A stretch of 64,000 nt of DNA from Nitrosopumilaceae archaeon (GCA_965208905.1 OZ242365.1:864001-928000), one strand, 5' to 3'; shown: positions 10,310 through 63,881, numbered from the stretch's first letter. Made by a program: numbers and translations. Notes: generated by a model from the sequence alone, not told the origin.

Positions 10310-10351
10310 TTCAGATGTAAGCTATTTAGTAGTGTGCATATTGTCTGAATC

Positions 10352-12184
10352 ATGGAAAGGGCAAAACGAGTGGTTGTCGATACCAGCGTTATAGTAAACA
10401 GTCGGCTATTGAACCGTGTTGAATCAGGTGATATGCGTAACTATGAGATAATAATACCGCAGGTGGTACTTGATGAACTATATGCGCAGGCCAACAACCA
10501 TCGCCAGCAGGGGTGGGCAGGCCTTGGGACACTTCAACAACTATTTGAATTGTCCTCAGATGCTGGTATTACCGTCACCATACATGGTAATCACGCAACA
10601 GCCGAAGATCTGGAGCTGTCCAGTAGCGGCAGACTGGACAATCTCATAAACGATACTGCAAAACGACTTCGGGCAACACTATACACATCAGATAACCTTC
10701 AGCACCTCGCGGCGCGCGCGACAGGCATGGATGCAATCCTCCTTCCACCTGACACCGAATCTGTGGACATGGAGTTTCCCAAATACTTTGATTCAGATAC
10801 GATGAGTGTGCACCTAAAAGAGAATATGGCTCCTGTGGCCAAAAGAGGAGGCCCCGGCTCATTTATAATGGTCTCACTAGACAGCGCCCCCCTGACACAC
10901 GTGGATTTGGAGCGAATAGCCTCTAAAATAGTAGATGCCACTCGAAGTTCCAATGGAATAATTGAGATAGAAAAGCCCGGAGCCACCGTCGTACAATACG
11001 AAGATTACAGAATCGCAATAACCCGACCACCATTCTCAGAAGCAATAGAGATAACAATTGTACATCCACTAGTCAATCTATCTTTGAATGACTATGATGT
11101 ATCTGATGAACTGATGGAGCGGTTTGCTGATACTGCAGAGGGTGTGGTGGTGGCCGGCCCGCCGGGCTCTGGTAAGTCCACATTGGCATCAAGTTTGGCC
11201 GACTTTTACAGTGCGAAGGGTCGTATAGTCAAGACATTTGAATCTCCTAGAGACCTACAAGTGAGCTCCAATATCACACAATATGCTAAATTAGATGGCA
11301 GTTTTGAAAACTCTGCAGACATACTTCTCTTGGTAAGGCCTGACTGTACCATATTTGATGAGGTGCGCCGGCGTGAGGACTTTGAAACGTTCACTGATCT
11401 TCGACTTGCTGGTGTAGGGATGGTGGGAGTAGTACATGCTAACTCGCCCATGGATGGCATTCAAAGATTCATTGGGAAGGTGGATTTGGGAATAATCCCA
11501 AGCGTATTGGATACTGTAGTGTTTGTTCAGGATGGTGGTATTGAAAAAGTCTATGAGCTGGACCTGAAGGTAAAAGTACCTTCTGGCATGATAGAGGCAG
11601 ATTTGGCACGACCAGTCATCGAGGTTCGCGACTTTACAACCAAGGCACTGGAACACGAAATTTACACGTTTGGTCAGGAGAATGTTATAGTGCCGGTGTT
11701 AGATGGCCATACAAAGGGTATAGGTGGACTTGCCGAAGACAAGATACGCTCAATGTTTGAGCGATACGACCCCAATGTGGCCGTAGAGATACTCTCTGAT
11801 AGTCGTGTCGTGGTTCGCGTGGCAAAGGATCGTATACCCAGCGTTATAGGACGCCGAGGCTCTAACATCAGTGATTTGGAACGAAAGTTGGGAATATCCA
11901 TAGATGTGGAGGCGCGAGATAACGAATCAATTGTTGATGGTCTTGAAGTGCCTACCAGCTTTTCAGAGTCCAAGACCGCCTTGTTGCTGGATGTGGGCTC
12001 ACAATATGCTTCCATGTCCGCTACAGTCTTTGTCGATAATACGCCTCTGACATCCAGGCGGGTGGGGCGCAAGGGTCAAATAAAACTACCAAAGAGATCC
12101 GAAGCTGCGCGGCGTTTTATAGATATGGTCTCTGAAGATGGAGATATTCGCGTGATTGTTAAAGACGCCCAAACTCCTCAATAA
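10352..12184 (+). CDS. PIN-domain / P-loop ATPase / KH-domain protein (PINA-like)
   Basis: N-terminal VVDTS PIN, Walker A GPPGSGKST, FDEVR, KH IGRRGSNI. Confidence 0.88.
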   Translation: MERAKRVVVDTSVIVNSRLLNRVESGDMRNYEIIIPQVVLDELYAQANNHRQQGWAGLGTLQQLFELSSDAGITVTIHGNHATAEDLELSSSGRLDNLINDTAKRLRATLYTSDNLQHLAARATGMDAILLPPDTESVDMEFPKYFDSDTMSVHLKENMAPVAKRGGPGSFIMVSLDSAPLTHVDLERIASKIVDATRSSNGIIEIEKPGATVVQYEDYRIAITRPPFSEAIEITIVHPLVNLSLNDYDVSDELMERFADTAEGVVVAGPPGSGKSTLASSLADFYSAKGRIVKTFESPRDLQVSSNITQYAKLDGSFENSADILLLVRPDCTIFDEVRRREDFETFTDLRLAGVGMVGVVHANSPMDGIQRFIGKVDLGIIPSVLDTVVFVQDGGIEKVYELDLKVKVPSGMIEADLARPVIEVRDFTTKALEHEIYTFGQENVIVPVLDGHTKGIGGLAEDKIRSMFERYDPNVAVEILSDSRVVVRVAKDRIPSVIGRRGSNISDLERKLGISIDVEARDNESIVDGLEVPTSFSESKTALLLDVGSQYASMSATVFVDNTPLTSRRVGRKGQIKLPKRSEAARRFIDMVSEDGDIRVIVKDAQTPQ

Positions 12185-12620
12185 TTTTTGGGTTTGCCTT
12201 TAAATACGTGATGAACTTTCGTAACTGAAATACAGTCTCCGGGTTCAAATGGTGTTCTATACCCTCGGCATCCTGATTTGCGGCATCACCAGTTATGCCC
12301 AACATATCAAAGAACTCCAACAGAGTACCATGCCTCTGTCGTATGGAGTCGGCCAACTTGCGTCCTTTGTTAGTCAAGTTTATGCCATGGTACTTTTCAT
12401 ACTTTAGAAAGCCGCCCTCATCCAATCGATGTAGCATCTTGGTGACACTAGGCGCACTTACATTCATGTATCTGGATATGTCCAAAGTGGTGGCATATCC
12501 TTTTAGTTCTACAAGCTCTGCCATCACCTCTAGATAGTCTTCCATACGGGGACTTGAATCTCGACGGCCCACGCCATGTGCAGCACGAATGGAATCTAAT
12601 CTGCTAACATCCGGCGGCAT
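12159..12620 (-). CDS. DtxR/MntR metal-dependent regulator
   Basis: MEDYLE, VSAPSVTKML, DAEGIEHH; start placed at MPPDV. Confidence 0.87.
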   Translation of the reverse strand: MPPDVSRLDSIRAAHGVGRRDSSPRMEDYLEVMAELVELKGYATTLDISRYMNVSAPSVTKMLHRLDEGGFLKYEKYHGINLTNKGRKLADSIRQRHGTLLEFFDMLGITGDAANQDAEGIEHHLNPETVFQLRKFITYLKANPKIIEEFGRL

Positions 12621-12710
12621 AATACTAATACGTCTACACCATATTAAAGAGCTCCATTTGTTATACCTGCACAGGATACGATTTTTAATGGCATTGCACA
12701 ACGTGTAGTA

Positions 12711-13202
12711 ATGGCCACCCGAATGCAAGTACTAATACCCGTGGCTGCCGCCGCCGTAATAGTTGGTGTGGTTGGCATAATATCCATACCAGCAGATACC
12801 AAGATGGACTTTGCTGAATTTCCACAAGGTACCATACGGGTAGATGATGTTGTAGTTCAGGTGCAGATAGCTGATACAGAGCCACGCCGCGTACTAGGCC
12901 TAATGCATCAAAACGAACTCCCATATGATCAGGGAATGATATTCATATTTGACTCTGTAGGGCAATACAGTCTGTGGATGCGTAACGTACAGTTTCCCTT
13001 GGATATGATATGGTTTGATGAAGATGGTGTTGTGGTCCACATCGAAGAACGTGTACCTCCATGTCTTACCGCCTTGGAAGCCATGACCTGCCCGTCCATT
13101 GCCCCGGAAGTTGATGCGCTATACATACTTGAGGCCACCGGTGGTTTTGTCGAGCTGCACAATATACAGTTGGGCTCGCAGCTATACCTGATATCAGTAT
13201 AA
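12711..13202 (+). CDS. DUF192 family protein
   Basis: GLM..GMIFIF..WMRNVQFPLDMIW..YILE; N-terminal TM helix. Confidence 0.85.
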   Translation: MATRMQVLIPVAAAAVIVGVVGIISIPADTKMDFAEFPQGTIRVDDVVVQVQIADTEPRRVLGLMHQNELPYDQGMIFIFDSVGQYSLWMRNVQFPLDMIWFDEDGVVVHIEERVPPCLTALEAMTCPSIAPEVDALYILEATGGFVELHNIQLGSQLYLISV

Positions 13203-13207
13203 CTAAT

Positions 13208-13413
13208 GGAAATTACATCTCTAAGTAAACATGACCACTCTTTCGAGTGATGTTGGCGCCGGGTGCTGTCCGTGAGGGACAATTCCCACGCCATCCAAGG
13301 GGGCTCTGATGAGACGTTCTTTGTTGGTCAGGTTTTGACGCCCGACCTTTGGACAACTTGTGCCGGCCATCACATCACCAACGGCACTGGATATAGTGAG
13401 TGTCACGAGATGT
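13208..13413 (-). mobile_element. 3'-end remnant of a tnpB/TIR element (putative omegaRNA region plus TIR)
   Basis: Terminus GGAAATTACATCTCTAAGTAAAC resembles the 51398 TIR GGGAATTACATCTTTAAGTGAAC; reading frame ends VMFT* like HVFT* of 49946 TnpB; interior homologous to 38576-38715. Confidence 0.7.
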
Positions 13414-13422
13414 CTGCAACAC

Positions 13423-15145
13423 GGGTATGTCCCACTAGTATAAAGCCACTGGAGTCTCCTCCGGCAGCGCTACACCAGCAGCACAATTGGATACATCCAG
13501 GTGGTCGTCCAGGGACGGTAAATCATCACCCACGCGTAGTGAGTTCATCACCTCCCCTTTAGGCCGCCGCCCTTCACCGTCCTGCGGAAACCACAAGACG
13601 GTAGCATCCAACAACCGTTGGACGCACTGCTCCCAATCCCCGGCCACCCACCGATTAGAATCGGCTGCCGGTTCACAGTATTTGAGGATGCCGCGCCATA
13701 CAATATTGATGGCTGCGACATCATCCCTGTCGATATGGTATAAACAAATCTCACACCCTTTAATACGCCTCCATTCCTCCCATATTTTCGTGTCGTACTT
13801 TGGTTCCCACAACGCTTTCTTACAGGTAGGGCAAGTAGAACTAGTACCCTTAGCAACGACACCAATCACGGGAAGACCATGCTTTCCGTATACGCTTTTA
13901 GCCACCGCCCATATCGTACCCTGACTCCGCCCCATCTTCAACAAGTCGCGCGTCTCGTTTGACATCTGTTTGTTACTCTTTTTCATCATCCTGTCGATGG
14001 TTGGCTCCTCCAACACCAACACAAAGCCCAACGCGGCCAACCTGTACATCAGCTTGAACAGCCAGTCCTTCTTTTGGTTGTTGTATCTGGTGTTTATGCG
14101 GGCGCGTTCGCGACGACTAACTCTCTCATCTCGCCGCTTGTTCTTTGGCTTGCGGCCTGCATGTTTGATGTGCTTTGGCAGAGTACGCCTCCCTTTCTTT
14201 GGTTTTTGGGCTTGTTTACTCTTCGGTTTGCCACCAGTCATGCCTAGGTTGGCGTGTTTCTGCCGTCGTGTCTAAGCGGCTTCAAGCGCCCATTTGGAAT
14301 GCGTTTTACATTACCGTCGGTGTCAACCGTTACATGCTGTACTTTGTTGACATCCATACCCATCATACCTTTGGCCTGCACTGGTGTGGTTGGTTGTGGT
14401 TCATACGCGATGGATACCGTTTTGTCATTTATGGTAACCGCCCCCACACTTACGGCAGTAGCCAACTTTTCTACCATGTACGGCGTGAGTTGTATCTCCA
14501 CGGTGTGTTTATGTGGTGTGATGGGAAACCGCAACACCACGTATGGTGATACCTGTAGGGGTTGATTCGGTGCGTCAGATAACCTACATCGGAAACCTTG
14601 ACCATATATCCGACAAGACCCAGCATTCTGCCGCAGTACTGGACTTGTACACTTTGGCCGCCGCGCGTTGGGGTCTTGCGCACGCCTCTTGTAGTATGCA
14701 CGCATCTTAGCCTCACACTCATCTTTCATGGTTAACGCGAACTGCGCCATGTATTTGTTGTCGCGGTGCTTGAGCAGTCTGTATATGTTCTTGGCTCTGA
14801 CATCATACTCTTCTAACTCATCTTCACTATACGCTTCCCGTACTTTTGGAAAATCCCTGATCAATTCGGACCAAAGACGGTATCCCAGCCCAGTCTTATG
14901 TCCTGCATATTGTAAGGCGGATTCCAGTATATCATCTGGGTCGTATTTGGGCGGTCTACGAGATCCTGTCAGTTCACAAAACTTTGCAGGATGGTATATC
15001 TTACCGTGTGGCATTGCTACTGCTACGGTGTCACCACATCGTCTTTTCATAGAGTACTATACTATGTTTTACTATTTAATATTTGATTACCGTTATTGGC
15101 ATACACCATTCACTGTTTTTGGATATTTACCTGCGGGACACACCC
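13423..15145 (-). mobile_element. Non-autonomous TIR element carrying disrupted tnpB (TIR family GGGTRTGTCCC)
   Basis: Imperfect 26-bp TIRs GGGTATGTCCCACTAGTATAAAGCCA / GGGTGTGTCCCGCAGGTAAATATCCA (19/26); 9-bp TSD CTGCAACAC at 13414-13422 and 15146-15154. Confidence 0.85.
13435..15050 (-). pseudogene. tnpB: TnpB-family nuclease split by frameshift/stop near 14240-14295 (lineage 2)
   Basis: 5' ORF has GMDVN (RuvC-I); 3' ORF has LVLEE, CPTC..CEIC, DRDDVAAINI. Confidence 0.85.
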
Positions 15146-15188
15146 CTGCAACACCAAAGAATTTATTTTGATTTCATAATTAGAAAAC

Positions 15189-15836
15189 ATGAGACGCAGT
15201 ATACTGATTACAATAATTATTTTGATTGGTGTGAGCATGTCTGCTCTTGTTTTGATATATAATTTGGGCCAACAACCTGAAATTGAAATACAAGCATCAG
15301 AGTCGTATATCTGCGCGGATGATTTGACTGAGAGTGAACTATCTGTAACACCCTTATCGTATGATGATAACAACTTGATTCGGTCTGCGCTCGAAAGACA
15401 CGATATACAGATGTCCTCATCACTAGAGTTTTCTGGCGAAAAGGCTGCAGAATTTTGCTCGTTCTTTGCAGATGGCACTGTACCCGTATACTGCACATCT
15501 ACCGAACTCGTACAGAGTGGTGAATTTTTGGGCAACGTCCACATGGTGGGTACGACTGATGAGCCCTCTGCTGTGTTGGGGGTTGTACGATCTGACACCA
15601 TACCTTCTGGTGTACATACCGTGACTGCTGTAGCTGATTCGATTATTGGAAGTGTATTTGAGTGCACAGGTGGCACATCCGCCCTCTGGATAGAGCAGTT
15701 ATCGGATAGACATACAAGAGAGAGTACTATGGCCACAAAGTCCACTATCGATGGTCTACCAACACCGGTCTTGTTGGAGCTGACCGGCTCATCTGGCAAC
15801 TATTTATGGACAATTTTGATTGGTAACACTCCATGA
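15189..15836 (+). CDS. Membrane-anchored hypothetical protein
   Basis: 215-aa ORF with N-terminal hydrophobic helix; overlaps next gene start. Confidence 0.7.
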   Translation: MRRSILITIIILIGVSMSALVLIYNLGQQPEIEIQASESYICADDLTESELSVTPLSYDDNNLIRSALERHDIQMSSSLEFSGEKAAEFCSFFADGTVPVYCTSTELVQSGEFLGNVHMVGTTDEPSAVLGVVRSDTIPSGVHTVTAVADSIIGSVFECTGGTSALWIEQLSDRHTRESTMATKSTIDGLPTPVLLELTGSSGNYLWTILIGNTP

Positions 15837-16678: not shown

Positions 16679-16944
16679 GAGAATTATGTGCCAAAGTTTG
16701 ATGTTTTCATTATACTTGATGTTGCGGGTCGATTTTGCGCCATATTTATCACATAACTATATGATATCTGGCACTACTTTGTCCCCATCAAAGCTCTAAG
16801 TTTGCATCTTTCAAGCAAACACCCGCCGCTGTGGGAACCATGTCGAATGGTTTTCTATTAGTGTAGCCATTATAACAGCACATATACTATGTTAGCCGTA
16901 ATAACCAAACCATTCGTCTGACAGCTAACTTTGTATCTAGATTC

Positions 16945-27586: not shown

Positions 27587-27630
27587 ATACTCATTATTTT
27601 TTGTCAACAATTTATTCTTTACCTCATGTT

Positions 27631-29246
27631 GGTTCCTCCCGCAAAGTCAGGTGACGGTTGATGTGTGTTGGATAGTGTTAAATACGTTATTGAACCGTAC
27701 TATATGATGGCTCTAGTCAAAAATAGCAGGGCAGTAACACGTCCATACACAAAAAATTTGGGCATGCGACATGTGTTTGAACATGTCAGGAAGGTGGCAG
27801 AAGTGGCGTACATTATAGCAGATAACACGGGGAAGAATACCTATGGTGTTAACGCATTAATATATCATATAATGCGCGGCCCTGACCCCAAAGTATATTC
27901 GTCCATAACGCAGACCGCCATACGGGACGGGGTTGCCGCCCATAAAACGTACAATACAAAGGCTGCGCAGGGCACGAAGGTGTCTGAACCTATATTTCGT
28001 AATCCGGTTGTAAAGTTGAAAAACCAAGATTGGAGGCTGAATCCGATAGCGGGTGGATATATGGCTATTGCAAATGTTGGCTCATCAAAACACCCACATA
28101 TGATAGCAATTCCCGTCTCTTCAGATGTGGTACGTAAAATAGGGCAAAATGAGTTGGGAGAGTTGTGGATCACGCCAACCACATATACCATTACATATTA
28201 CAACAAAGTGCCCAAGGTTGAAAAATCCCACCCACACGGCAAGTCAGAGATTATCGAACTACTTACGGATGTGGGCTGTGTGGGCGGTACACCAAAGGAT
28301 GTAATTGGCGTGGATATTAATGAAAAGAACATCACCGTAGGTGATAAAGATACAATGGTACAGTTTGATCTATCATACACGATACAGGCCATTGAGGGGG
28401 CAAAGACTGAGGATGTAAACAATACGTATACCCGTACACATGATAATATCGCATATGCGGCACGTACCGGAAGGTGTGTTGTACACAAGAAAGAGGAGGA
28501 GCGCAGAGAAAAGCAACAAGTCACACATGGTGGTCACAAGTTACACAGCAAACTCAAACGCAGATACAATAAACTCAAGAGGGAGGGCAAACACAAGAGG
28601 GCCGCCGAGATAAAGAAGCAGATGAGCAGATGCATATTGAGCATACCACATAACCACACAAAATCAAGGAAGAATGCTAAAAAGCGCAGGGTGGCCAAAG
28701 CCATGCGCCACCACGAACATGTGCTGAATGTGATAGCGTTATGTATAGCACAGTGGGCCGCACAATCCGGGTGCTTGGTGATGTTGGAGGATTTAACCCA
28801 TATATCGTATGGTTGGCAGAAGAATGGGAAGTTTGGCCATAATATGCGTCGCAGGTTACATTCTGCCATGATGCGAAAAGCATCGAATTTAATTTATGAA
28901 AAGTCCCAATTTTTGGGAGTAGAGGCATTACATATGCGTCCACACAACACATCCAAGCTATGTGCTGCATGTAGAACCCCACTAACTGGAGCTTATCATA
29001 AAAAAGACTGCACCCGCTGCCATACGGTTGGCGTAGATCGCGACGTCAACGCAGTGGAGAACATACGGCGAACAAGCGCCGTATCCCGATATGGTCGTAA
29101 GGTTTCGGCCAGTCTGGGCGAAGTCCGTCGTGGTGTGGATGTAATCCTCGATCCCACACCACTCATACAGGGTTGCTGGAGCAACTGGGCTGACAGGCTA
29201 TCCCGCATGGCGGGGGGTGTAATCACCCGACTTTGCGGGAGGAACC
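27631..29246 (+). mobile_element. Non-autonomous TIR element carrying tnpB, family A copy 2
   Basis: TIRs GGTTCCTCCCGCAAAGTCAGG / GGTTCCTCCCGCAAAGTCGGG; flanks CCTCATGTT (27622-27630) / CCTCGTGTT (29247-29255), 9 bp with 1 mismatch. Confidence 0.92.
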
Positions 29247-29356
29247 CCTCGTGTTTTGGGAAATTAAAAATGATCCAGGTCTGGTATGGTGATCGTTTTG
29301 AGTGCGTGGCACGCTTGTGTGGTTTGGCTGCAAAAAATCCCACACCCTATGATTAA
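27665..29356 (+). CDS. tnpB: TnpB-family nuclease (lineage A); ORF reads through the right TIR because of a G-run indel
   Basis: Close paralog of 8718..10286; RuvC D/E/D and Zn finger intact. Confidence 0.88.
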   Translation: MLDSVKYVIEPYYMMALVKNSRAVTRPYTKNLGMRHVFEHVRKVAEVAYIIADNTGKNTYGVNALIYHIMRGPDPKVYSSITQTAIRDGVAAHKTYNTKAAQGTKVSEPIFRNPVVKLKNQDWRLNPIAGGYMAIANVGSSKHPHMIAIPVSSDVVRKIGQNELGELWITPTTYTITYYNKVPKVEKSHPHGKSEIIELLTDVGCVGGTPKDVIGVDINEKNITVGDKDTMVQFDLSYTIQAIEGAKTEDVNNTYTRTHDNIAYAARTGRCVVHKKEEERREKQQVTHGGHKLHSKLKRRYNKLKREGKHKRAAEIKKQMSRCILSIPHNHTKSRKNAKKRRVAKAMRHHEHVLNVIALCIAQWAAQSGCLVMLEDLTHISYGWQKNGKFGHNMRRRLHSAMMRKASNLIYEKSQFLGVEALHMRPHNTSKLCAACRTPLTGAYHKKDCTRCHTVGVDRDVNAVENIRRTSAVSRYGRKVSASLGEVRRGVDVILDPTPLIQGCWSNWADRLSRMAGGVITRLCGRNPSCFGKLKMIQVWYGDRFECVARLCGLAAKNPTPYD

Positions 29357-29384
29357 TAAAAGAGGCCAATTCCATACGATACAA

Positions 29385-29498
29385 GCCGGCCATAGCGTCA
29401 GGGCGCGACCCAACCCCATTCCGAACTTGGAAGTCAAACCTGATGTCGCTGTTGTGCTACTAAGGTGCGAGAGCTCTTGGGAAGCAACAGTGCTGGCA
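29385..29498 (+). rRNA. rrf: 5S rRNA
   Basis: GGCCATAGC..CCCATTCCGAAC..GAAGTCAA; GCCGGC/GCTGGC terminal helix; ~114 nt. Confidence 0.9.
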
Positions 29499-29521
29499 TT
29501 ATTTATTAATAGTTACTGTGC

Positions 29522-30611: not shown

Positions 30612-30658
30612 AAAATCTTAACAAATATGTATTTAGGCTCCTCCCGCAAAGTCGGGCG

Positions 30659-32224
30659 ATGGTTGATGTATTGTTGGATAGTGTTAAATACATTATTAAA
30701 CCGTACTATGTGATGGCTCTTGTAAAAAATAGCAGGGCAATAACACGTACATACACAAAAAATTTGGGTATGCGGTATGTGTTTGAGCATGTCAGGAAGG
30801 TGGCAGAAGTGGCGTACATTATAGCGAATAATACGGGGAAGAATACCTATGGTGTTAACGCATTAATGTATCGTACAATGCGCGGTCTTGACCCCAAAGT
30901 ACGTTCATCCATAACGCAGACCGCCATACGGGACGGGGTTGCCGCCCATAAAACGTACAATACAAAGACTGCGCAGGGCATGAAGGTATCTGAACCTGTA
31001 TTCTGTAATCCGGTTGTAAAGTTAACAAATCAAAGTTGGAGGCTGAATCCGATAGCGGGTGGATATATGGCTGTTGCAAATGTTGGCTCATCAAAACACC
31101 GACACATGATAGCAATTCCCATCTCTTTAGATGTGGTACGCAGAATAGGACAAAATGAGTTGGGCGAGTTGTGGATCACGCCAACCACCTATACAATTAC
31201 ATATTACAACAAAGTACCAACGGTTGAAAAACCCCACCCACACGGCAAGTCGGAGATTATTGAACTACTTACGGATGTGGGGCAGGTGGGCGGCACGCCA
31301 AAGGATGTGATTGGTGTTGATATTAATGAAAAGAACATCACCGTAGGTGATAAAAACACGATGGTACGGTTTGATCTATCATGTACAATACAGGCCATTG
31401 AGGAGGCAAAGACCGCGGATGTAAACAATACGTATACACGCACACATGATGATGCCGCATATGCAGCACGTACCGGAAGGCGTGTTGTACACAAGAAGGA
31501 GGAGGAGCGCAGGGGAAAACAACAAGTCACACATGGTGGTCCCAAACTATACAACAAACTCAGACGCAGATACAAGAAACTCAAGAGGGAGGGCAAACAC
31601 AAGAGGGCCGCGGAGATAAAGAAGCAGACGAACAGATGTATACTGAGCATACCACATAACCACACAAAGTCAAAAAAGAATGATAAAAAACGCAGGGTGG
31701 CCAAAGCCGTGCGCCGCCACGAACACGTGCTGAATGTAATAGCATTATGTATAGCACAGTGGGCCGCACAATCCGGGTGCTTGGTGATGTTGGAGGATTT
31801 AACCAATATATCGTACAGTTGGCAGAAGAATGGGAAGTTTGGCCATAATATGCGTCGCAGATTATATTCTGCCATGATGCGGAAAGCATCGAATTTAATT
31901 TATGAAAAGTCCCGGTTTTTGGGAGTGGAGGCATTACATATGCGTCCACACAATACATCCAAGTTGTGTGCTGCATGTAGAAACATACTAACTGGGACTT
32001 ATCATAAAAAAGACTGCACCCACTGTTGTACAGTTGGCGTAGATCGCGACGTCAATGCAGTGGAGAATATACGGCGAACAAGCGCCGTATCCCGATATGG
32101 TCGTCAGGTTTCGGCCAGTCTGGGCGAAGTCCGTCGTGATGTGGATGTAATCCTCGATCCCACACCACTCATACAGGGTTGCTGGAGCAACTGGGCTGAC
32201 AGACTATCCCGCATGGTGGTGTAA
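30659..32224 (+). CDS. tnpB: TnpB-family nuclease (lineage A)
   Basis: GVDINE, VMLED, CAAC..CTHC, DRDVNAVENI. Confidence 0.9.
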   Translation: MVDVLLDSVKYIIKPYYVMALVKNSRAITRTYTKNLGMRYVFEHVRKVAEVAYIIANNTGKNTYGVNALMYRTMRGLDPKVRSSITQTAIRDGVAAHKTYNTKTAQGMKVSEPVFCNPVVKLTNQSWRLNPIAGGYMAVANVGSSKHRHMIAIPISLDVVRRIGQNELGELWITPTTYTITYYNKVPTVEKPHPHGKSEIIELLTDVGQVGGTPKDVIGVDINEKNITVGDKNTMVRFDLSCTIQAIEEAKTADVNNTYTRTHDDAAYAARTGRRVVHKKEEERRGKQQVTHGGPKLYNKLRRRYKKLKREGKHKRAAEIKKQTNRCILSIPHNHTKSKKNDKKRRVAKAVRRHEHVLNVIALCIAQWAAQSGCLVMLEDLTNISYSWQKNGKFGHNMRRRLYSAMMRKASNLIYEKSRFLGVEALHMRPHNTSKLCAACRNILTGTYHKKDCTHCCTVGVDRDVNAVENIRRTSAVSRYGRQVSASLGEVRRDVDVILDPTPLIQGCWSNWADRLSRMVV

Positions 32225-32248
32225 TCACCCGACTTTGCGGGAGGAACC
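32069..32248 (+). ncRNA. Putative omegaRNA scaffold of family A (equivalent regions in the other three copies)
   Basis: Hairpins ATACGGCG/CGCCGTAT, GGTCG/CGGCC, GTTGC/GCAAC, TCCCGCA/TGCGGGA; more conserved between copies than the ORF body; position matches known tnpB omegaRNAs; 5' boundary uncertain. Confidence 0.65.
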
Positions 32249-32298
32249 TGTATTTACCAACAGCATGCATAAAATACAGAACATAATGTAAGTACATT

Positions 32299-42471: not shown

Positions 42472-42660
42472 AAAAACTCTTCTTTTTTTAATTTGTTTTC
42501 TATATTTAGTCTTTCTATATAAAATGAGGTACATACCCTAAACTGTCATGATGCCGTCTATACCAGTGATGCATCCTGCATGGAAAAAATTTTAGGTCTA
42601 TGGAGGTCTGCCAGACATACACAAGACCACTGTCAGCCTGCCACACGTTATTTAGTTCTG

Positions 42661-44304
42661 GGTTCCTCCCGCAAAGTCGGGTGATTACACCCCCGCCATG
42701 CGGGATAGTCTGTCGGCCCAGTTGCTCCAGCAACCCTGTATGAGTGGTGTGGGATCGAGTATTACATCCACACCACGACGGACTTCGCCCAGACTGGCCG
42801 AAACCTGACGACCATACCGGGATACGGCGCTTGTTCGCCGTATGTTCTCCACTGCATTGACGTCGCGATCTACGCCAACTGTACAACAGTGGGTGCAGTC
42901 TTTTTTATGATAAGTTCCAGTTAGTGGGGTTCTACATACAGCACATAGCTTGGATGTGTTGTGTGGGCGCATATGTAATGCCTCCACTCCCAAAAATTGG
43001 GACTTTTCATAAATTAAATTCGATGCTTTCCGCATCATGGCAGAATATAATCTGCGACGCATATTATGGAAATCCTCCAACATCACCAAGCACCCGGATT
43101 GTGCGGCCCACTGTGCTATACATAATGCATCCCAAACTTCCCATTCTTCTATCCAACATCACCAAGCACCCGGATTGTGCGGCCCACTGTGCTATACATA
43201 ATGCTATTACATTCAGCACGTTCGTGGCGGCGCACGGCTTTGGCCACCCTGCGTTTTTTATCATTCTTTTTTGACTTTGTGTGGTTATGCGGTATGCTCA
43301 ATATGCATCTGCTCATCTGCCTCTTTATTTCGGCGGCCTTCTTGTGTTTGCCCTCCCTCTTGAGTTTATTGTATCTGCGTTTGAGTTTGCTGTGTAACTT
43401 GTGACCACCATGTGTGACTTGTTGCCTTTCTCTGCGCTCCTCTTTTTTGTGTACAACGCGCCTTCCGGTACGTGCCGCATATGCGATATTATCATGTGTA
43501 CGTGTATACGTATTGTTTGCATCCGCAGTCTTTGCCTCCTCAATGGCCTGTATGGTATCGGATAGATCAAACCGTACCATCGTGTTTTTATCACCTACGG
43601 TGATGTTCTTTTCATTGATGTCTATGCCAATTACATCCCTTGGTGTACCGCCCACATACCCCACATCCGTAAGTAGTTCAATAATCTCTGACTTGCCGTG
43701 TGGGTGGGGGTTTTCAACCTTTGGTACTTTGTTGTAATATGTAATTGTATATGTGGTTGGCGTGATCCACAACTCACCTAGTTCATTTTGTCCTATTCTG
43801 CGTACCACATCTGAAGAGACGGGAATTGCTATCATGTGTCGGTGTTTTGATGAGCCAACATTTGCAACAGCCATATATCCACCCGCTATCGGATTCAGTC
43901 TCCAATCTTGGTTTTTCAACTTTACAACCGGATTACGAAATATAGGCTCAGACACCTTCATGCCCTGCGCAGTCTTTGTTTTGTGCGTTTTATAGGCGAC
44001 GACCCCGTCCCGTATGGCGGTCTGCGTTATAGATGAACGTACTTTGGGGTCAGGGCCGCGCATTGTACTATACATCAATGCATTAACACCATAGGTATCC
44101 TTTCCCGTATTATTCGCTATAATGTACGCCACCTCTGCCACCTTCCTGACATGTTCAAACACATGCCGCATACCCAAATTTTTTGTGAGTGGGCGCGTTA
44201 TAGCCCTGCTATTTTTTACTGATGCCACTACATAGTACGGTTCAATGGTGTATTTAACATCATCCAACACACAACAACCACCACCCGTCCTTGCGGGAGG
44301 AACC
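42661..44304 (-). mobile_element. Non-autonomous TIR element carrying disrupted tnpB, family A copy 4
   Basis: TIRs GGTTCCTCCCGCAAAGTCGGG / GGTTCCTCCCGCAAGGACGGG; TSD TAGTTCTG at 42653-42660 and 44305-44312. Confidence 0.95.
42685..44270 (-). pseudogene. tnpB: TnpB (lineage A) broken by a 2-bp deletion and an internal duplication/rearrangement
   Basis: Three partial ORFs; 53-bp direct repeat 43076-43128 / 43152-43204. Confidence 0.88.
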
Positions 44305-44318
44305 TAGTTCTGTATGTA

Positions 44319-55194: not shown

Positions 55195-55597
55195 TATATG
55201 ATATAATCTGAAAATTTTTCAATCTTTAAACACATTTAGTGGCACAAAAGGTAGGCAAAAATTAAAGTATTTTAAATCTCATATTTTATCCTGCCAAAAA
55301 TTTCCATATGGCAAAGAAATTAAAAAAAATTTAATCTGAAAAACATAACAAAATCATTATACGCTAAATATCATTTGAAACAGAATGAAACAATTCTAAC
55401 AAAGTATAAAATAAATATAAACGGAATTTATCATCAGTTGTAACTTTAGCTATTAAATATATCTAGACGTACATAACCATGATGTTGCACAAGATCATTA
55501 ACCCAAATTTGTGATCATGTCTTTGCATTCTTCAATTTTGTAAAATACTCTGAAACAGAGATTTCATAGACATATATGTTTACTATGTGTATAGTGC

Positions 55598-57579: not shown

Positions 57580-57623
57580 CCAACAGTTTAAATTGTCAAT
57601 TGAATGAATATTGACGATTTAAA

Positions 57624-59066
57624 ATGTCTAGCAGGACTCCAAAAAAAACCAAAGATGGTCAGTACATAATTGAACCGTCTGGCGACATGAAAGTTCCGGT
57701 TCGTATATACGCAACTGATTCACTTTTATCAAAAATGTTACATGATCGTACACTGCGCCAGGCATGTAATGTTGCATCCATGCCCGGAATACTAAGTCAT
57801 GGTGTAGTCTTGCCTGATGGCCATGAGGGATATGGGTTTCCAGTGGGCGGTGTGGCTGCTATGGATGTCGAAGAGGGCATGATAAGTCCTGGTGGTGTAG
57901 GCTATGACATAAACTGTGGTGTACGACTGTTGCGCAGTGAACTGACCGAGAGTGAATTACGACCACAACTAAAGGATTTGGTCTTTGATCTCTTTAATAC
58001 AATACCTTCCGGCGTAGGCTCCAAAGGAACAAGAAAACTATCTCATTCCGAGTTAGATGAGGTGCTGGTACGAGGCGTAAATTGGGCAGTTGATCACGGG
58101 TATGGTTCTATTGGTGATGCTGATGTGTGTGAGGAGAGTGGGTGTATTGCCGGTGCAGACCCTAACTCTGTATCTGATCGTGCACGGAAACGAGGCGCCC
58201 CACAACTAGGAAGTCTAGGCTCTGGCAATCACTTTTTAGAAGTTCAGAAGGTAGATCAAATCTACGATGAGGAAGCAGCTCAGCTTATGGGTCTAAAGAA
58301 GGATACAATCACAGTATTGATACATTGCGGATCCCGAGGATTTGGACACCAGGTATGTACCGATTACTTGCGAATATCCGAGAGGGCACTGACCAAGTAT
58401 GACATAGCACTGCAGGATAAGGAACTGGCATGCGTACCCATCACATCTGATGAGGGTGAATCTTATCGCAAAGCAATGTTTGCAGCACTTAATTTTGCAT
58501 GGAGTAATCGACAAATGATCACCCATTGGACCCGTAAGTCATTTGAGCGAGTATTTGGCCAGAGCGAGTCGGACTTGGACATGGATATGGTATATGATGT
58601 TGCGCACAACATCGCTAAAATAGAGACACATAATATAGATGGACGCAATCGCAAAGTTGTGGTACATCGTAAGGGTGCAACAAGGGCATTTCCAGCAGAT
58701 GCGCCTGAGGTTTCATCTAGATACCGCTCTGTGGGTCAGCCTGTATTGATACCTGGTTCGATGGGAACTTCCAGCTGGGTTTTATTGGGCCGCCCTGCAT
58801 CCATGGGACTTAGTTTTGGTTCTACAGCCCATGGTGCTGGACGGGTTATGTCTCGATCCAAGGCTCGCCGAAGTTATACTGAGTCAGGCATTCGTCAATC
58901 TTTGAATGAGCAGGGCATATTTGTAAAGTCGACTACCGGTAATGGTATAGTTGAAGAATCTCCTCAGGCATACAAGGATGTGGATGCAGTGGTTGAAGTC
59001 TCTCACAAGCTGGGCATTGCCACAAAGGTGGCCCGCTTAGTTCCTATTGGGGTGATCAAAGGTTGA
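57624..59066 (+). CDS. rtcB: RNA-splicing ligase RtcB
   Basis: PDGH.GYGFPVG, GYDINCG, GSGNHF, HRKGA, HGAGR, EE.P.AYK. Confidence 0.95.
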   Translation: MSSRTPKKTKDGQYIIEPSGDMKVPVRIYATDSLLSKMLHDRTLRQACNVASMPGILSHGVVLPDGHEGYGFPVGGVAAMDVEEGMISPGGVGYDINCGVRLLRSELTESELRPQLKDLVFDLFNTIPSGVGSKGTRKLSHSELDEVLVRGVNWAVDHGYGSIGDADVCEESGCIAGADPNSVSDRARKRGAPQLGSLGSGNHFLEVQKVDQIYDEEAAQLMGLKKDTITVLIHCGSRGFGHQVCTDYLRISERALTKYDIALQDKELACVPITSDEGESYRKAMFAALNFAWSNRQMITHWTRKSFERVFGQSESDLDMDMVYDVAHNIAKIETHNIDGRNRKVVVHRKGATRAFPADAPEVSSRYRSVGQPVLIPGSMGTSSWVLLGRPASMGLSFGSTAHGAGRVMSRSKARRSYTESGIRQSLNEQGIFVKSTTGNGIVEESPQAYKDVDAVVEVSHKLGIATKVARLVPIGVIKG

Positions 59067-59440
59067 GCAATGATGCTGAGCTGAACCGGCTAATGTCCAA
59101 AAGACTGGCTGAGATGCAACAACATGCCCAGGAACATCATACCACAGATAAAGGCGGTGAGCCATCACCCCGAGAGATTGTAGTATCAATGTTGGGATAT
59201 AGAGGACTTGAGGTACTAGAGACTGCCGAGAGACAGTTTCCCTCCCAAACCTCTGTATTAGTATCTGGTTTGGCCAAGATTATATCTTCTGGCAATCTAG
59301 ATCACAAACTCGATGGTGGAGACTTGATGCGTGTTTTTGCTCTTTCTGGATTGTCTCTGCGCATGAATACGCGTATAAATGTGGTAAAAGATGGGAAAAC
59401 CATATCTCTATCGGATAAACTAAGTGGTAAAAAACCTTGA
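59063..59440 (+). CDS. PDCD5-like dsDNA-binding domain protein
   Basis: N-terminal DAELNRLMSKRLAEMQ; weak similarity only. Confidence 0.55.
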   Translation: MSNDAELNRLMSKRLAEMQQHAQEHHTTDKGGEPSPREIVVSMLGYRGLEVLETAERQFPSQTSVLVSGLAKIISSGNLDHKLDGGDLMRVFALSGLSLRMNTRINVVKDGKTISLSDKLSGKKP

Positions 59441-59760
59441 GCCAGGCTGTACTACGAGTGGGCACAAAAGATTATGCTACTGATGTCGTTCTTTTAAAGA
59501 AGGCCATGTCCCAAATGGAGTCGTTGTTATCGGCCTATAATGGATATGCTCTTAGTGACCCCACCTCTAAACTTGGTTGGACGTTTTTTAGTATGGCATT
59601 CAAGGCTGACCTACAACAGAAGATTGAGCAGCGATTTGCAGACATGATAGGCCAATATCGCTGGGGCAGTTCTGATGAAAAGTTTACAAAATTTATGCAA
59701 GAGTACCTACATGCTCGGGGCTGTAATGTAGAGTTAAAACTGGACAAGCAGCGAATGTGA
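59437..59760 (+). CDS. Hypothetical protein
   Basis: 107-aa ORF translationally coupled to previous gene. Confidence 0.65.
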   Translation: MSQAVLRVGTKDYATDVVLLKKAMSQMESLLSAYNGYALSDPTSKLGWTFFSMAFKADLQQKIEQRFADMIGQYRWGSSDEKFTKFMQEYLHARGCNVELKLDKQRM

Positions 59761-59820
59761 GCAGATTATTATTGGTATAATTCCCAATGTTTTTTAAACC
59801 CATATTGGCATAACTGTTAC

Positions 59821-60717
59821 TTGACTGCTGATGTGAGCAAAGACATAGAAAACGTGGAGACAGATGTAACTGATTCTGTCACTGAAACAGACGCAAACTT
59901 GGATGCGACTGCAGAACCGGCAACTGACACAACACCTGATGATGTGATTGAACCTGATATGTCTGCTGCAGAACCTAGTGATGCTGACATTGAGACAGAC
60001 CAGTTGAGCAAGGATTCGGGTATAGAGTACGATGATTCTGCAGAACCTAGTGATGCTGACATTGAGACAGACCAGTTGAGCAAGGATTCGGGTATAGAGT
60101 CCGATGATGCTGACATTGAGACAGACCAGTTGAGCAAGGATTTGGGTATAGAGTCCGATGATGCTGCAGAACCCGACCCAAAAAAACCCCGTGAATTATC
60201 CGAGGAGGCGCGTGCTAAAATTGATGCTATGATCGCAGATGGAAGACTTGATGATGACTTTGGCGATGGACAGCCTGCAGTTATAGCTGATAAACCTGAA
60301 AAATGGGGCATAGCCCACATCTTTAGTAGTTTTAACAATACAATAATACATTTGACTGACCTTACGGGTGCTGAAACCATAGCCATAAGCTCTGGCGGAC
60401 AGCACTCTAATGCAGATAGATATGAGTCATCCCCATTTGCCGCCATGAAGGCAGCCAATGCGGTGGTAGATGTTGCACGTGCTAGAGGGTTTACAGGATT
60501 TCACATTCGCGTCCGTGCAGTTGGTGGCGTGGGCTCTCGAGTTCCAGGACCTGGTGCGCAGGCAGCCATTAGGGCACTGGCAAGGGCCACATCAAACAAA
60601 GATGATGATCCAGATTCTGGACTGGGTGCATTCCGTATAGGCCGTATAGATGATGTCACACCAATTCCTCATGATACCACTAGGAAGAAAGGCGGAAAAC
60701 GCGGAAGACGAGTCTAA
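59821..60717 (+). CDS. rps11: Ribosomal protein uS11 with long acidic N-terminal extension
   Basis: [44 protein letters not shown]. Confidence 0.9.
59980..60154 (+). repeat. Three in-frame copies of a 49-bp core ([12 protein letters not shown][S/L]GIE)
   Basis: Copies start at 59980, 60052, 60106 (periods 72 and 54 bp). Confidence 0.92.
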
Positions 60718-60821
60718 CAGGTTTGTCTCTAGAACTGTTTCTTGAGTTGTCAATATGTCCTATATCTGTGGTTAAACTCGGTTCCTACTGCAAGCACGGG
60801 GGTTCCCACACCTACAATACA

Positions 60822-62216
60822 TTACACGTCACGCCAGAGGACGACGGTGCATGACACATCTCGTTCCCCGGTCTGTGCTTGACGTTTCTCAGGGGAGCTA
60901 ACGCAAGAACCCTCCACGTCCAGACACCCCTTAACATGGGTGCTGCCGGTATTGTCCGGCAAGTTTCGTAAGTTTAGTTGACCATGTCTGGCCCTCGGGC
61001 CGAGTTTCTTCAGCCCCACATCCTCTATGTTTGAGCCCGCATTACAGTCGGCATGATACCTGTAGCCACACTTTTTACACAAGAACCGTCTACCATCCCG
61101 GTTATCTTTATGTGTATAACCGCACGAGTAGCACCGTTGGCTTGTATACGCTGCCGCAACCCAAATTATCTCTCCAGCCAACTTGTACGCCAATAGAGCG
61201 GCGAGCAGCCCCCAGCACTGCTCTAGGATGGCCTTATTGAGACCAGATTTTTGCGCAACGTTCTTGCCGGGTTTTTCTTTGGTACCTTTGACGGACTTTG
61301 CCATATTTTGTATGGGTAGATTCTCCATGGCTGCATGTGTGGTACTGTCCGATATAACGCGTGATATTTTATGCGCGGTGGTCTTTCGAATATTTGCGGC
61401 TTTGCGTTTGTTCTTGGCGGCACGTTTACTGGCTTTGGCCCACCGTCGGGAGCCGGGCTTGCGATTCGTATAATTGGGTTTATGCCTGCGCGAGGCTATC
61501 TTTTGCGCCTTAGAGGCTGTTTTTTCGGCGTTATTCATGCGACGTGTGACCTTTTCGGGTACCATTATTACACAGTCAGGTGTGGCCACATTACCGACAT
61601 TCCGGTCTATGCCAATAACGGTCTGCTCGGTCACGGTTGGCTTCTCGTCTGGTACATCACAAGATATGGTAATCCTCCACCCACCATCCGGTAGTTGAAA
61701 TAGTTGCGCGGTCTTGTATCGGTAATTCAGGACGGGAAACTCCCGAGACAGTTTAACCTCGCCCATCTTGGCTATCTTGATTGTACGTGTATCGGTGAAG
61801 CGCGCTTGGCCGACGGTGCCATCATGCGTTATTATAAACGGGATGGAGATTCGCTCACCGTGTCGTTTAAAGTGTGGTTCACCAAACTCCGCCTTAGGTT
61901 TGATGTCAGCAGCCTTCAGCCTCTCTGTTTCCACATATTGGTCATAATGCCTTCCCAAGTCATATAATATTTGGCGCGTCACCCCGGATATAGACTGACG
62001 CAGCCAACACGGACCCGAACGGTTGCGCAAGTCCGTATACCAGGCGTTTATCCTACCCTGTGTGGTGTTGACCCTTCCAGCTCGACGGTACTCCTCCTTG
62101 AAGGTTTCCAATAATTTGTTATACACGTACCTGTCCATGCCGGCCTGTCTGGCCAACATCTCCTTCTTGAACCCTTTACGGAATCTAACGCCGAATGTGT
62201 ATGTACGTAGTACCAT
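60822..62216 (-). CDS. tnpB: TnpB-family nuclease (lineage B)
   Basis: RYVYN, GIDRN, AMENL, YTSQRCYSC..CKKC, HADCNAGSNI. Confidence 0.93.
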   Translation of the reverse strand: MVLRTYTFGVRFRKGFKKEMLARQAGMDRYVYNKLLETFKEEYRRAGRVNTTQGRINAWYTDLRNRSGPCWLRQSISGVTRQILYDLGRHYDQYVETERLKAADIKPKAEFGEPHFKRHGERISIPFIITHDGTVGQARFTDTRTIKIAKMGEVKLSREFPVLNYRYKTAQLFQLPDGGWRITISCDVPDEKPTVTEQTVIGIDRNVGNVATPDCVIMVPEKVTRRMNNAEKTASKAQKIASRRHKPNYTNRKPGSRRWAKASKRAAKNKRKAANIRKTTAHKISRVISDSTTHAAMENLPIQNMAKSVKGTKEKPGKNVAQKSGLNKAILEQCWGLLAALLAYKLAGEIIWVAAAYTSQRCYSCGYTHKDNRDGRRFLCKKCGYRYHADCNAGSNIEDVGLKKLGPRARHGQLNLRNLPDNTGSTHVKGCLDVEGSCVSSPEKRQAQTGERDVSCTVVLWRDV

Positions 62217-62432
62217 TAGCGTATAGTACGGTCCACATGTTTAAAAAGATAGTTGAGGTGTGATATATGGCACCCGTCCTTGCGGGAGGAACCAGCGTTG
62301 AGGTTCCTCCCGCAAGGACGGGTGGTGGGGTAATTGTTTAGTCACTTTACGACTAGTGATTTTTGTACCAGATTGGGTCAAAATCGTCCCCGATTGCCGG
62401 CATCTTGAGAGTGGTGTTGAAAAGTTACGTAA

Positions 62433-63649
62433 TTGGTTAAGAAATCTTCTCCTATGATCTTAAATAATATGATAAATTGGAGTATGTATGGGACAGAAGA
62501 ACACCCGCAAGCCCCGGAATGGCAGGGCCTCGGGGAATGGTATAACGCGCCGCGGCTTCACATATACCAGAAGGGCGACCAGATCAAGACCCTGACCGGG
62601 AATCGTTGGGGCGTGGCCTCCCAGAGTGAGAATGTGTGGTATCGTGTATAGTTTGCGGACAAGAGCCCCACATGCGAGTGCGCTTACCACACCACCGGGA
62701 ATGGGTGCCGCGACATAGCACATGGCTGCGGTCGAGCACTATCTACTCGTATAGTCCGAGACCGCCCTCGGCAAGAATATCGAAATCAACGAGCATAAAC
62801 TGATGTGTCCAAAGTGCAAGGAAACAAAGTACCCCCGCGACGGATGGTATTGCGGCAAGCACAAAAAGAGGCAGAGGTACAAGTGTACCAAATGCGGGCG
62901 GCGGTTCGCAGGACAACCTGGGCTTTGAGTACCGACAGGTGCCGCGCCTGTACATCACGCTGGCCCTGATATTGTCGGGGATAGGGATGTCGGTGACCAA
63001 CACCCAAATGGCGCTCGGCCACCTGGGTGTAAAGGTGCACGTGGACACTACACCCAGGATACTGGAGCACTATTTTGAGGTGGTGCAAAGTACCCAGAGA
63101 CCATCAAGCCTCCGTGCGTGGGGGACAAGTGGGGCTGCGAGGGGAAGCACCAGAAGGTCCGCGGCAGGGAGTTATACGTCACGGTCATTATGTGTATCTC
63201 CACCCAATTCATACTGGCATTGAACACGACGCCCACCAAAAAGGGGTACGACACCGTCCCCCTACTGCAGAAGGCCCGAAATATGGCGGGGAAGGTTCTC
63301 AGGCTGTTCATTACAGACGGTACACACCAGTACCATGTGGCCTTCAAGAAGGTATTCCTCACGCTGAAGGGCCTCAGATGTATACACATACGCGACATCC
63401 ACATCCGGAACTTCATCTGCAACACCAACAAGCAGGAGCGGCTCAACGGAGAGCTGGCAGGCCACCATACGGTACGCCCGCGGCATAAACAGAGAAGAGT
63501 CGCCGATATTCCGCATGGCGATTATACGCCACAACTACATTAAACCCCACGGCGGCATAATGTACAGGACGCCGGCAGAGGCCGCTGGCATGGACATACG
63601 CGGCTCCAACATATGGCTGACGCTCATACAGAGTGCTGTAGCCGTCTGA
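62433..63649 (+). pseudogene. IS6/IS1-like DDE transposase with SWIM-like and Zn-ribbon domains, multiply frameshifted
   Basis: Fragments CECAYH..C, CPKC..RYKCTKCGRRF, FITDG..Y, NKQERLNG, HNYIKPH..TPAEAAG..W; first catalytic W..DE motif reads WGCEG. Confidence 0.8.
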
Positions 63650-63881
63650 GGAGCCCCAAACGCCCGACATCGTCGAACAGAATGGATTTTTACCCCCTCA
63701 CCCGTCCTGTTCCGGCAGGACTTTACAAAAAACCGGTCCGAAATGCATCCCGGCGGCCCCTGTATGCCCGGTTTGTACAGGATTGCGGCCCGGATCCAGA
63801 CCATTTAGAGCGACCGCCCGACTTTGCGGGAGGAACCTTAAACTCTAATGTAGCTCAACTAGAGTCTTCATAATGTGGACC

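Follow-up and report, generated by a model that had tools for sequence, protein, structure and literature searches.

A one-sided WTR motif beside the target site duplications of IS6-type tnpB elements in a Nitrosopumilaceae archaeon: a candidate TnpB transposon-adjacent motif

We analysed a 64,000-nucleotide stretch of a Nitrosopumilaceae genome (the window, G000:C1:864001-928000) that carries mobile elements with inverted repeats starting GGTTCC, most of them with tnpB as their gene. The host is a sponge-associated archaeon with a one-contig genome of 2.21 Mb (45.6% GC). Immediately 5' of the target site duplication (TSD) on the tnpB-start side of these elements lies a short motif, WTR, the exact form of which differs with the TnpB family. 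Comparisons of flanks, empty sites, proteins and RNA regions lead us to favour, with some reserve, the reading that this motif is the transposon-adjacent motif (TAM) of TnpB and that the TnpB guide would begin with the TSD.

Results

A one-sided motif flanks the GGTTCC-ended units

The window holds six units with GGTTCC-starting terminal inverted repeats (TIRs, ~21-26 bp), namely four family A units, a single family B unit and one of a third type, C. A family A unit is 1.6 kb long and has a single 522-aa open reading frame (ORF), tnpB, with its start 23 nt inside one end and its stop 26 nt short of the other. Every unit was oriented by its tnpB, the left end (LE) being the tnpB-start side and the right end (RE) the tnpB-end side. 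The features are as follows, in window coordinates.

8692-10309, minus strand: family A copy 1, 1618 bp, with tnpB at 8718-10286 (522 aa) and TIRs of ~21-26 bp reading GGTTCCTCC(T/C)G(C/T)AAAGTCGGG; flank GCTTA then CATCTGAA
10310-10317: LE-side TSD of copy 1, TTCAGATG on the plus strand; RE-side TSD at 8684-8691
10318-10320: candidate TAM of copy 1, TAA on the plus strand, TTA in the tnpB sense
27631-29246, plus strand: family A copy 2; flank CTTTA then CCTCATGTT
27622-27630 and 29247-29255: 9-bp TSD of copy 2, with one mismatch; candidate TAM TTA at 27619-27621
30636-32248, plus strand: family A copy 3; flank AAATA then TGTATTTA
30628-30635 and 32249-32256: TSD of copy 3, TGTATTTA; candidate TAM ATA at 30625-30627
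42661-44304, minus strand: family A copy 4, rearranged internally, tnpB truncated to 373 aa; flank ACATA then CAGAACTA
42653-42660 and 44305-44312: TSD of copy 4, TAGTTCTG; candidate TAM at 44313-44315 (TAT on the plus strand, ATA in the tnpB sense)
60780-62293, minus strand: family B element, 1514 bp, with tnpB at 60822-62216 (464 aa)
62302-63837, plus strand: element C, 1536 bp, a decayed IS6-family insertion sequence (IS) with TIRs as in B
~62529-63637, plus strand: DDE_Tnp_IS240-like transposase pseudogene of element C, with stops and frameshifts
60780-63837, minus strand: B+C composite; flank CATTA then GAGTTTAA
60772-60779 and 63838-63845: outer TSD of the composite, TTAAACTC, one TSD common to B and C
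63846-63848: candidate TAM of the composite, TAA on the plus strand, TTA in the tnpB sense, at the end opposite the RE of B

An initial annotation of this DNA had described five GGTTCC-ended insertions; all five flanks stand, while the units themselves number six, B and C sharing their outer TSD. Its five pentamers 5' of the TSD and its five opposite-flank dinucleotides (GG, TT, CC, AA and CC) were each read directly and are each correct. Copy 4 joins family A positions 1-1159 to ~1103-1618, with a small internal duplication or gap, and has a B-type LE repeat (GGTTCCTCCCGCAAGGACGGG).

Genome-wide we found 24 GGTTCC-ended units with both ends: 14 of family A (two of them resembling MITEs, or miniature inverted-repeat transposable elements), nine of family B (one MITE-like and one with a nested IS) and the composite. 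Directly 5' of the LE-side TSD, T stood at -2 and W at -3 in all 24, and R at -1 in 23. As triplets these were WTA (TTA or ATA) in 17/24, TTG in 6/24 and TTT in one. At the mirror position on the RE side TTA, ATA or TTG occurred in only two of the 24 units, and hence the one-sided bias first noticed in the window holds across the genome (23/24 versus 2/24). Information content was 0.9-1.9 bit at positions -3 to -1, and in the same 24 units no motif was found at the 3' end of the TSD (0.07-0.27 bit at TSD positions 6-8). The motif of family A is TTA or ATA and that of family B mostly TTG, with G at -1 in 0/14 family A units versus 6/9 of family B (Fisher p = 8e-4). The motif is WTR, in a form that differs by TnpB family; the WTA of the initial annotation correctly identified a T-rich triplet 5' of the TSD and was too narrow in leaving out TTG.

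The motif persisted as copies were added. Among tnpB-bearing relatives in other genomes it was present at 13/17 elements, a count that for relatives of B leaves out the 10 of 19 loci to which our script assigned no credible inverted repeats and for A-like elements leaves out L048 (no TSD) and L050 (one end only). The A-like elements of the relative G005 had TTA in 5/5 cases, and the motif was also seen in G001 and other metagenome-assembled genomes (MAGs). A compositional accident of AT-rich intergenic DNA was a reasonable concern while the sample was n = 5 with AT-rich flanks. That alternative is refuted and retains practically no probability, since the motif, with a genomic frequency of 0.059, is present at 18 of the 19 units outside the window (binomial p = 1.5e-21), the mirror side has it in only 2/24, and it recurs in the other genomes just named.

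The motif belongs to the target and follows the TSD boundary

The genome of G005 is 92-99% identical to ours over the flanks of copies 2 and 3 and is without family A. At the copy 2 site it reads TTCTTTA, then CCTCATGCT, then TTGGG, with the TSD sequence single, and at the copy 3 site AAATA, then TGTATTTA, then C, again with a single occurrence and no element. As these empty sites hold both the motif and the TSD sequence once, the TSDs are genuine and the motif is a property of the target rather than of the element. The flank of copy 2 fits the motif only with a 9-bp TSD, as the initial annotation had proposed, and the single-copy empty site confirms that TSD. In both cases of 9-bp TSDs, copy 2 and the element T7 described below, the motif kept to the TSD boundary and not to a fixed distance from the element end. 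The G005 counterparts of the copy 1 and copy 4 sites were set aside as clean empty sites, the former containing 876 bp of unrelated AT-rich DNA and the latter being broken by 9.6 kb. G005 also carries a T7-like element 9 nt from the empty copy 3 site, beside a TTA.

The orientation of the family A LE relative to the motif was invariant although the two terminal repeats of this family are nearly identical. In the composite the motif lies 3 kb off, beside the outer end of C, on the side that lies opposite to the RE of B. B and C are separated by 8 bp (62294-62301). A second pair of GGTTCC-type units exactly 8 bp apart occurs in another genome (G006 locus L078:957-1128), where the intervening 8 bp equal the flanking TSD (TGTTTTTT). 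This spacing suggests that a unit inserted into the TSD of a copy already in place and that, in the window, both then moved together as a single unit. With regard to copy-in cointegrate chemistry, these tandem units hint only at insertion into an existing TSD. One family B copy (G000:C1:703872-705390) has flanks without a simple TSD, CTTGGACTAGTA on the LE side and CTTGTAGTA on the RE side, as if ~12 bp including TTG had been duplicated and 3 nt lost later.

The elements are IS6-type shells with tnpB cargo

The TIRs of families A, B and C read GGTTCC...GCAAAG, with GG tips and a CAAA motif. When element C was compared by blastx with the genome's own ORFs, it matched DDE_Tnp_IS240-type proteins (summed E 5e-23), and translation showed its reading frame to be interrupted by stops. 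A stop-free 136-aa stretch of C shares 74% identity (E = 3e-70) with an intact transposase of 388 aa from G009, in which PF13610 scores 30.4 bits (cut-off 27). That profile does not detect the C pseudogene, and the ORF fragments of C had no Pfam match. Intact transposase-only units in G009 and G004 are 1.44-1.48 kb long, have inverted repeats GGTTCCTCCCGCAA(A/G)GACGGGTG, and in 9/13 paired cases are flanked by exact 8-bp TSDs. The IS240-type transposase, the GG-tipped repeats with CAAA and the 8-bp direct repeats are those of the IS6/IS26 family. Given the transposase of element C, the GG/CAAA repeats and the 8-bp TSDs, families A and B are IS6-type shells with tnpB cargo, and B+C is a transposase-plus-tnpB composite.

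The genome is 99.57% complete and gave no match to the Y1 transposase TnpA (PF01797), for which control genomes were positive. Several other candidate mobilisers were rejected. The rve (three families), IS630 and IS1595 DDE genes of the genome have unrelated ends, and its ~13 intact IS240-like genes have no GGTTC-type repeats nearby and no detectable inverted repeats. The IS240-like gene of G005 lies in an element with a different end, GGCAACTGGGAAG. This ~3.8-kb element (G005:C1:836551-840354; L055, L060-L063) is present in at least three identical copies and encodes a 406-aa IS240-like protein; no inverted repeat matching the GGCAACTGGGAAG end was found at its other end.

TnpB proteins

The family B protein is a canonical TnpB: Pfam finds HTH_OrfB_IS605, OrfB_IS605 and TNB, the protein aligns over its full length with ISDra2 TnpB, and the RuvC D-E-D residues are present. 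The family A protein is very divergent. Pfam finds only TNB, at 29.8 bits (cut-off 26.3), a phmmer search of the Protein Data Bank (PDB) returned only chance-level matches, and between A and B hhalign could align no more than the TNB/RuvC-III stretch (E = 5.8e-4). Homologues of A number 34 among 5.8 billion proteins, all with PF07282 where annotated. Across 24 relatives D221, E379, D464, C437 and C440 do not vary, and C453 and C456 hardly do. An AlphaFold2 model built on the alignment of relatives had a mean predicted local distance difference test score (pLDDT) of 75.9 (a first model from five sequences, pLDDT 47.7, was discarded). Foldseek matched it over its whole length to Cas12f (E = 3.7e-14), ISDra2 TnpB (8h1j, 1.3e-9) and Fanzor2. 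The median ratio of nonsynonymous to synonymous substitution rates (dN/dS) was 0.24 for A (36 pairs) and 0.27 for B (21 pairs). Both TnpBs retain their catalytic residues and are under purifying selection. Copies 2 and 3, both absent from G005, are only ~92% identical to each other versus a flank difference from G005 of a few per cent, and therefore the copies diverged as active lineages and not by decay in place.

A structured region reaches the right boundary

We aligned the last ~190 nt of eight A and A-like tails from six genomes, with protein identities to A of only 33-39%. Eight helices are supported, which reach the very last base of the element, where the terminal GAACC pairs with an invariant internal GGUUC. 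Paired cells made up 92.5% versus 78.2% in shuffles. Double compensatory changes were found in 18/41 pairs (shuffle mean 10.9; 0/500 shuffles as high; 2-9 pairs in slid controls), a result that is favoured somewhat by the structure having been predicted from the alignment on which it was tested. The tails are thus predicted to form an omegaRNA-like structured region ending at the right boundary, in copy 1 the following.

8692-8880, minus strand: omegaRNA-like structured region of copy 1, ending at the last base of the RE

RNA contigs at 8703-9095, 8703-8897 and 8710-8937 were found in three metatranscriptome runs, all from a single study; their depth is 8-24 near the RE versus 0-2.6 over the rest of tnpB. 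These contigs end at 8703 or 8710, where the copies differ; they do not cover sequence past the terminus and have no bearing on read-through. A scan of the window at Rfam gathering thresholds found 5S rRNA only and no omegaRNA match. The 5S rRNA gene (29382-29501, 74.8 bits) lies 136 nt downstream of the copy 2 RE, and hence the predicted guide of copy 2 would point into the 5S upstream region.

Transposase-only and MITE-like units

Nine transposase-only units of G009 and G004 with exact TSDs had TTA, ATA or TTG at 3/18 sides, and on either side, versus 23/24 for the tnpB units (Fisher p = 1.2e-7). The initial annotation had named an equal presence of the motif at tnpB-less insertions as grounds for rejecting its proposal; at transposase-only insertions with like inverted repeats the motif is not an obligatory feature. 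The comparison with MITEs that it also suggested turned out differently. MITE-like derivatives do carry the motif, and they keep 115-490 nt of the RE; as the RNA region of the RE is retained, they are not a tnpB-free control. Given the nearly identical terminal repeats of family A, choice of a side by a symmetric transpososome would be unexpected.

The bases upstream of the motif are also unusual. The last 10 nt on the LE side are 0.81 AT versus ~0.58 elsewhere, and in family B the upstream pattern looks by eye like A-T-M-T-T-R. Where a divergent ORF lies close to the LE, this patch is often the TATA box of the neighbour, as at copy 1.

Other tnpB families

Two tnpB-only elements of other families lie in the window and served as comparators.

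13423-15145, minus strand: T7, tnpB-only, TIR GGGTGTGTCCCAC; ORF split at 14241/14244 into two 268-aa ORFs
13414-13422 and 15146-15154: 9-bp TSD of T7, CTGCAACAC; CAA at 15155-15157, TTG in the tnpB sense
610-2035, plus strand: T1, tnpB-only, IS1595-type TIR GGGAATTA(C/T)ATAC
602-609 and 2036-2043: TSD of T1, TAGTTTTA; TGG at 599-601

The three copies of T7, with ends unlike GGTTCC, have the triplets TTA, TTG and TTA. T1 has 17 copies with AT-rich 8-bp TSDs beginning with T or A. Its one-sided motif is WNG, with G at -1 in 13/13 elements with a TSD. A looser class defined by script gave 14/18, versus 8/31 at further ends with this type of TIR (p = 8e-4) and 7/20 at the RE of T1 itself. The ends of T1 and of a further family, T5 (GGGAATTATATAC...), are common to the IS1595-family elements of this genome.

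The genome contains 152 matches (at most two mismatches) to the 13-nt IS1595-type terminus GGGAATTATATAC, many in short MITE-like pairs. Three IS1595-family elements at G000:C1:1043578-1046414 (L041), 1770047-1772736 (L042) and 675271-677392 (L043) have TIRs GGGAATTATA..., 8-bp TSDs and a DDE transposase, and two of the three carry a passenger fusion of an N6/N4 DNA methylase with an HNH nuclease (454 aa; split in L042). There are at least seven multi-copy tnpB families in the genome, and no Y1 transposase.

Discussion

A candidate mechanism

In the mechanism that we propose, an IS6-type DDE transposase would insert the tnpB unit and make the 8-9 bp TSD, acting in trans or, in B+C, in cis; families A and B would carry tnpB as a passenger in place of a transposase gene. 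An omegaRNA would derive from the 3' end of tnpB and extend to the final base of the right inverted repeat. As that is the last base of the element, the guide would be read-through sequence, that is, the variable TSD plus ~8-12 nt of the right flank. In an empty allele the guide-matching sequence would be contiguous and preceded by WTR (TTA or ATA for A, TTG or TTA for B). TnpB would read WTR as its TAM and cut that allele, and recombination with the occupied copy would install the element, a form of homing or drive directed at sister chromosomes or incoming DNA. The occupied locus would be safe at both junctions, the RE junction because it is preceded by ...GGAACC and the LE junction because it keeps the TAM with only 8-9 matching bases; at the latter, as the initial annotation proposed, an 8-nt seed might permit TnpB to bind but not to cut. 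The near-100% association would arise if drive fixed only those insertions that are TAM-adjacent and correctly oriented, perhaps with some help from a mild preference of the transposase for TT. We infer TAM recognition, a guide starting at the TSD, cleavage, homing and the drive-caused fixation of motif-adjacent insertions from the arrangement of the motif, the TSD and the terminal RNA region.

For a TAM 5' of the upstream TSD, the central proposal of the initial annotation, there now speak the persistence of the motif, the transposase-only control, the family specificity, the tracking of the TSD boundary and the terminal structured RNA. A number of observations weigh against it. The motif is missing at 4/17 elements of other genomes, including all three tnpB elements of the GC-rich G009 (GCA, TCA and TGT), one G006 element has TTC in its place, and family T5 has no motif in four copies. 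The transposase-only control comes from loci of 61.8% GC in G009 and G004 versus 45.6% here, and those copies still have TT at -3/-2 on 6/18 sides. On the RNA side, the contigs come from a single study, are without strand or end information and stop 11 nt inside the element, and the folding energy of the RE is unremarkable (209 nt, z = 0.12; internal control -1.10). The one-sided AT-rich patch at -13 to -4 (0.84 in B, 0.72 in A, background ~0.6) counts against an account by a TAM alone because a 3-nt TAM does not predict it, and in 11/24 cases there is a divergent ORF whose start lies 9-46 nt from the LE. As the patch is unexplained, an oriented target preference and promoter targeting or capture both stay alive. 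Moreover, the IS6 family is described as copy-in (in the text of PMC7986276 that we drew on), and hence the classical restorative role of TnpB would not apply. With IS6 elements described there as non-excising, drive would need empty alleles supplied by polyploidy or DNA exchange.

Alternative explanations

The motif might be the choice of the IS6-type transposase, which would pick an asymmetric target consisting of the AT-rich patch and WTR and place the LE beside it, TnpB being uninvolved. Both parts of such a target pre-exist in the empty sites, the patch of ~10 nt is longer than typical TAMs, and transposase-only copies (at 62% GC loci) have T at -2 on 10/18 sides besides the TT already noted on 6/18. 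In IS200/IS605, moreover, the TAM is the transposase target, and hence transposase preference is a normal source of such a motif, according to the part of the review PMC13565253 used here. We nevertheless consider this explanation unlikely, if worth keeping in view. The near-identical repeats of family A give a transposase no evident basis for choosing a side, transposase-only copies have the motif at just 3/18 sides, and A and B have different motifs with one TIR type. MITEs and autonomous copies with the IS1595-type ends of T1 are without the T1 motif, and the motif of the composite borders the outer end of C, a position definable only relative to the tnpB of B. Another reading gives TnpB a role beyond homing: recognition of the TAM, alone or together with the 8-9 nt TSD seed of an existing LE junction, would steer the site and orientation of IS6-type insertion. 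We hold this to be quite improbable. It may amount to a minimal coupling of nuclease and DDE transposase resembling that of CRISPR-associated transposons (CAST), in which each new copy is born with a usable TAM. If true, steering would explain the near-100% association without population-level drive, the one-sided signature despite symmetric ends, and the one-TSD tandem spacing. As a corollary, the TAM and 8-nt seed at the LE, lying over the start of tnpB, could allow tnpB to be autoregulated.

Insertions might instead persist or occur only near a TATA-like box upstream of the LE, either because the box drives tnpB or because archaeal promoter complexes attract integration. The patch is indeed limited to ~10 nt on the LE side and is often the TATA box of a neighbour, the 11/24 divergent ORFs lie only 9-46 nt off, and the family A ATG, 23 nt inside the element, leaves no room for an internal promoter. 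We regard promoter capture or targeting as very unlikely all the same. T at -2 never varies and holds a fixed place relative to the TSD, a closer constraint than the spacing of a promoter would impose; TTG is not TATA-like; and directly beside the LE of copy 4 lies the 3' end of a gene. In family B the 77-nt leader includes a TTTTTAAA box of its own, yet patch and motif are stronger, and T1 has a 108-nt leader, yet its own one-sided motif WNG. Because B and T1 have promoter-like leaders and one-sided motifs nonetheless, promoter capture cannot be the general cause. A TnpB TAM with a guide beginning at the TSD thus remains the reading that we prefer.

Relation to known systems

Prokaryotic TnpB is currently tied to the scarlessly excising IS200/IS605 and IS607 elements. 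IS200/IS605 elements use a Y1 HUH transposase TnpA, have neither TIRs nor TSDs, and insert directly 3' of a 4-5 nt target. The GGTTCC-ended units are not of this kind: they have TIRs of 21-26 bp and TSDs of 8-9 bp, in a genome without Y1 TnpA. Between the motif and the LE stands the TSD, which would be the TAM-proximal part of the guide, and the partner transposase is of a type described as non-excising. What they have in common with the TnpB-omegaRNA systems of IS200/IS605 and IS607 (ISDra2) is the split RuvC D-E-D and zinc-ribbon TNB, a structured RNA over the 3' end of tnpB to the transposon boundary, a T-rich motif on the LE side, and tnpB-only copies more numerous than transposase copies.

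DDE-type transposons with inverted repeats and tnpB, and solo TnpBs with like ends, are known (Altae-Tran et al. 2023, PMC10691335). As in our units, the TnpB 3' end there lies <250 bp from the transposon end and the solo copies are presumably mobilised in trans. Unlike here, IS630 is the sole DDE partner named in the portion of that paper considered, which does not discuss target sites; its supplements may list IS6-type loci. Fanzor1 and Fanzor2* are likewise RNA-guided TnpB relatives in eukaryotic elements of cut-and-paste type with TIRs and TSDs, and their guide RNA runs through the TIR into the flank (PMC10711439, PMC13565253, both as excerpted here). According to the same excerpts, the Fanzor TSD has a fixed sequence of which the 5' copy is the TAM, or part of it, and the 3' copy lies in the RNA scaffold. 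In contrast, the TSD here is variable and the motif lies outside it. As the TSDs vary and their 3' end has no motif, the Fanzor geometry, in which TSD and TAM coincide, does not fit.

The IS6 family, which includes an archaeal clade, is characterised by GG-tipped inverted repeats containing CAAA and by target repeats of 8 bp (Varani et al. 2021, PMC7986276, in the sections used). The units described here resemble IS26 in these features and in the DDE_Tnp_IS240 transposase of their autonomous relatives, which differ from typical members (0.7-0.9 kb by the same sections) in their length of 1.44-1.48 kb and a transposase of 388-396 aa. The sections of that review used here mention one member with a passenger gene and none with tnpB. 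Literature searches, with supplements and subscription journals outside their scope, found nothing that joins "transposon-adjacent motif" with "target site duplication" or TnpB with Cenarchaeum. Judged by title and abstract, searches for TnpB with IS1595 gave nothing relevant, and the relevant items for TnpB with TAM and TSD were only on Fanzor or reviews. Within these searches we found no precedent for the arrangement proposed from our sequences, in which an IS6-type element would be the partner of TnpB, a variable TSD the TAM-proximal part of the guide, and the TAM one TSD away.

One review holds that DDE transposons gain little from TnpB (PMC13565253, in the part consulted). In this archaeon tnpB thrives as the sole gene of TSD-making IS6-type elements, and the transposases of that family are described as non-excising. 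A testable geometry follows from the flank signature, running from TAM to TSD (as guide seed) to flank. If our reading is true, homing by OMEGA systems (named for obligate mobile element-guided activity) works with TSD-forming DDE elements in archaea, and compact, divergent nucleases acquire predicted TAMs and guide starts, WTA for A, TTR for B and WNG for T1. These elements would then offer a natural setting in which to ask whether fixation is driven by TnpB or TnpB takes part in target choice.

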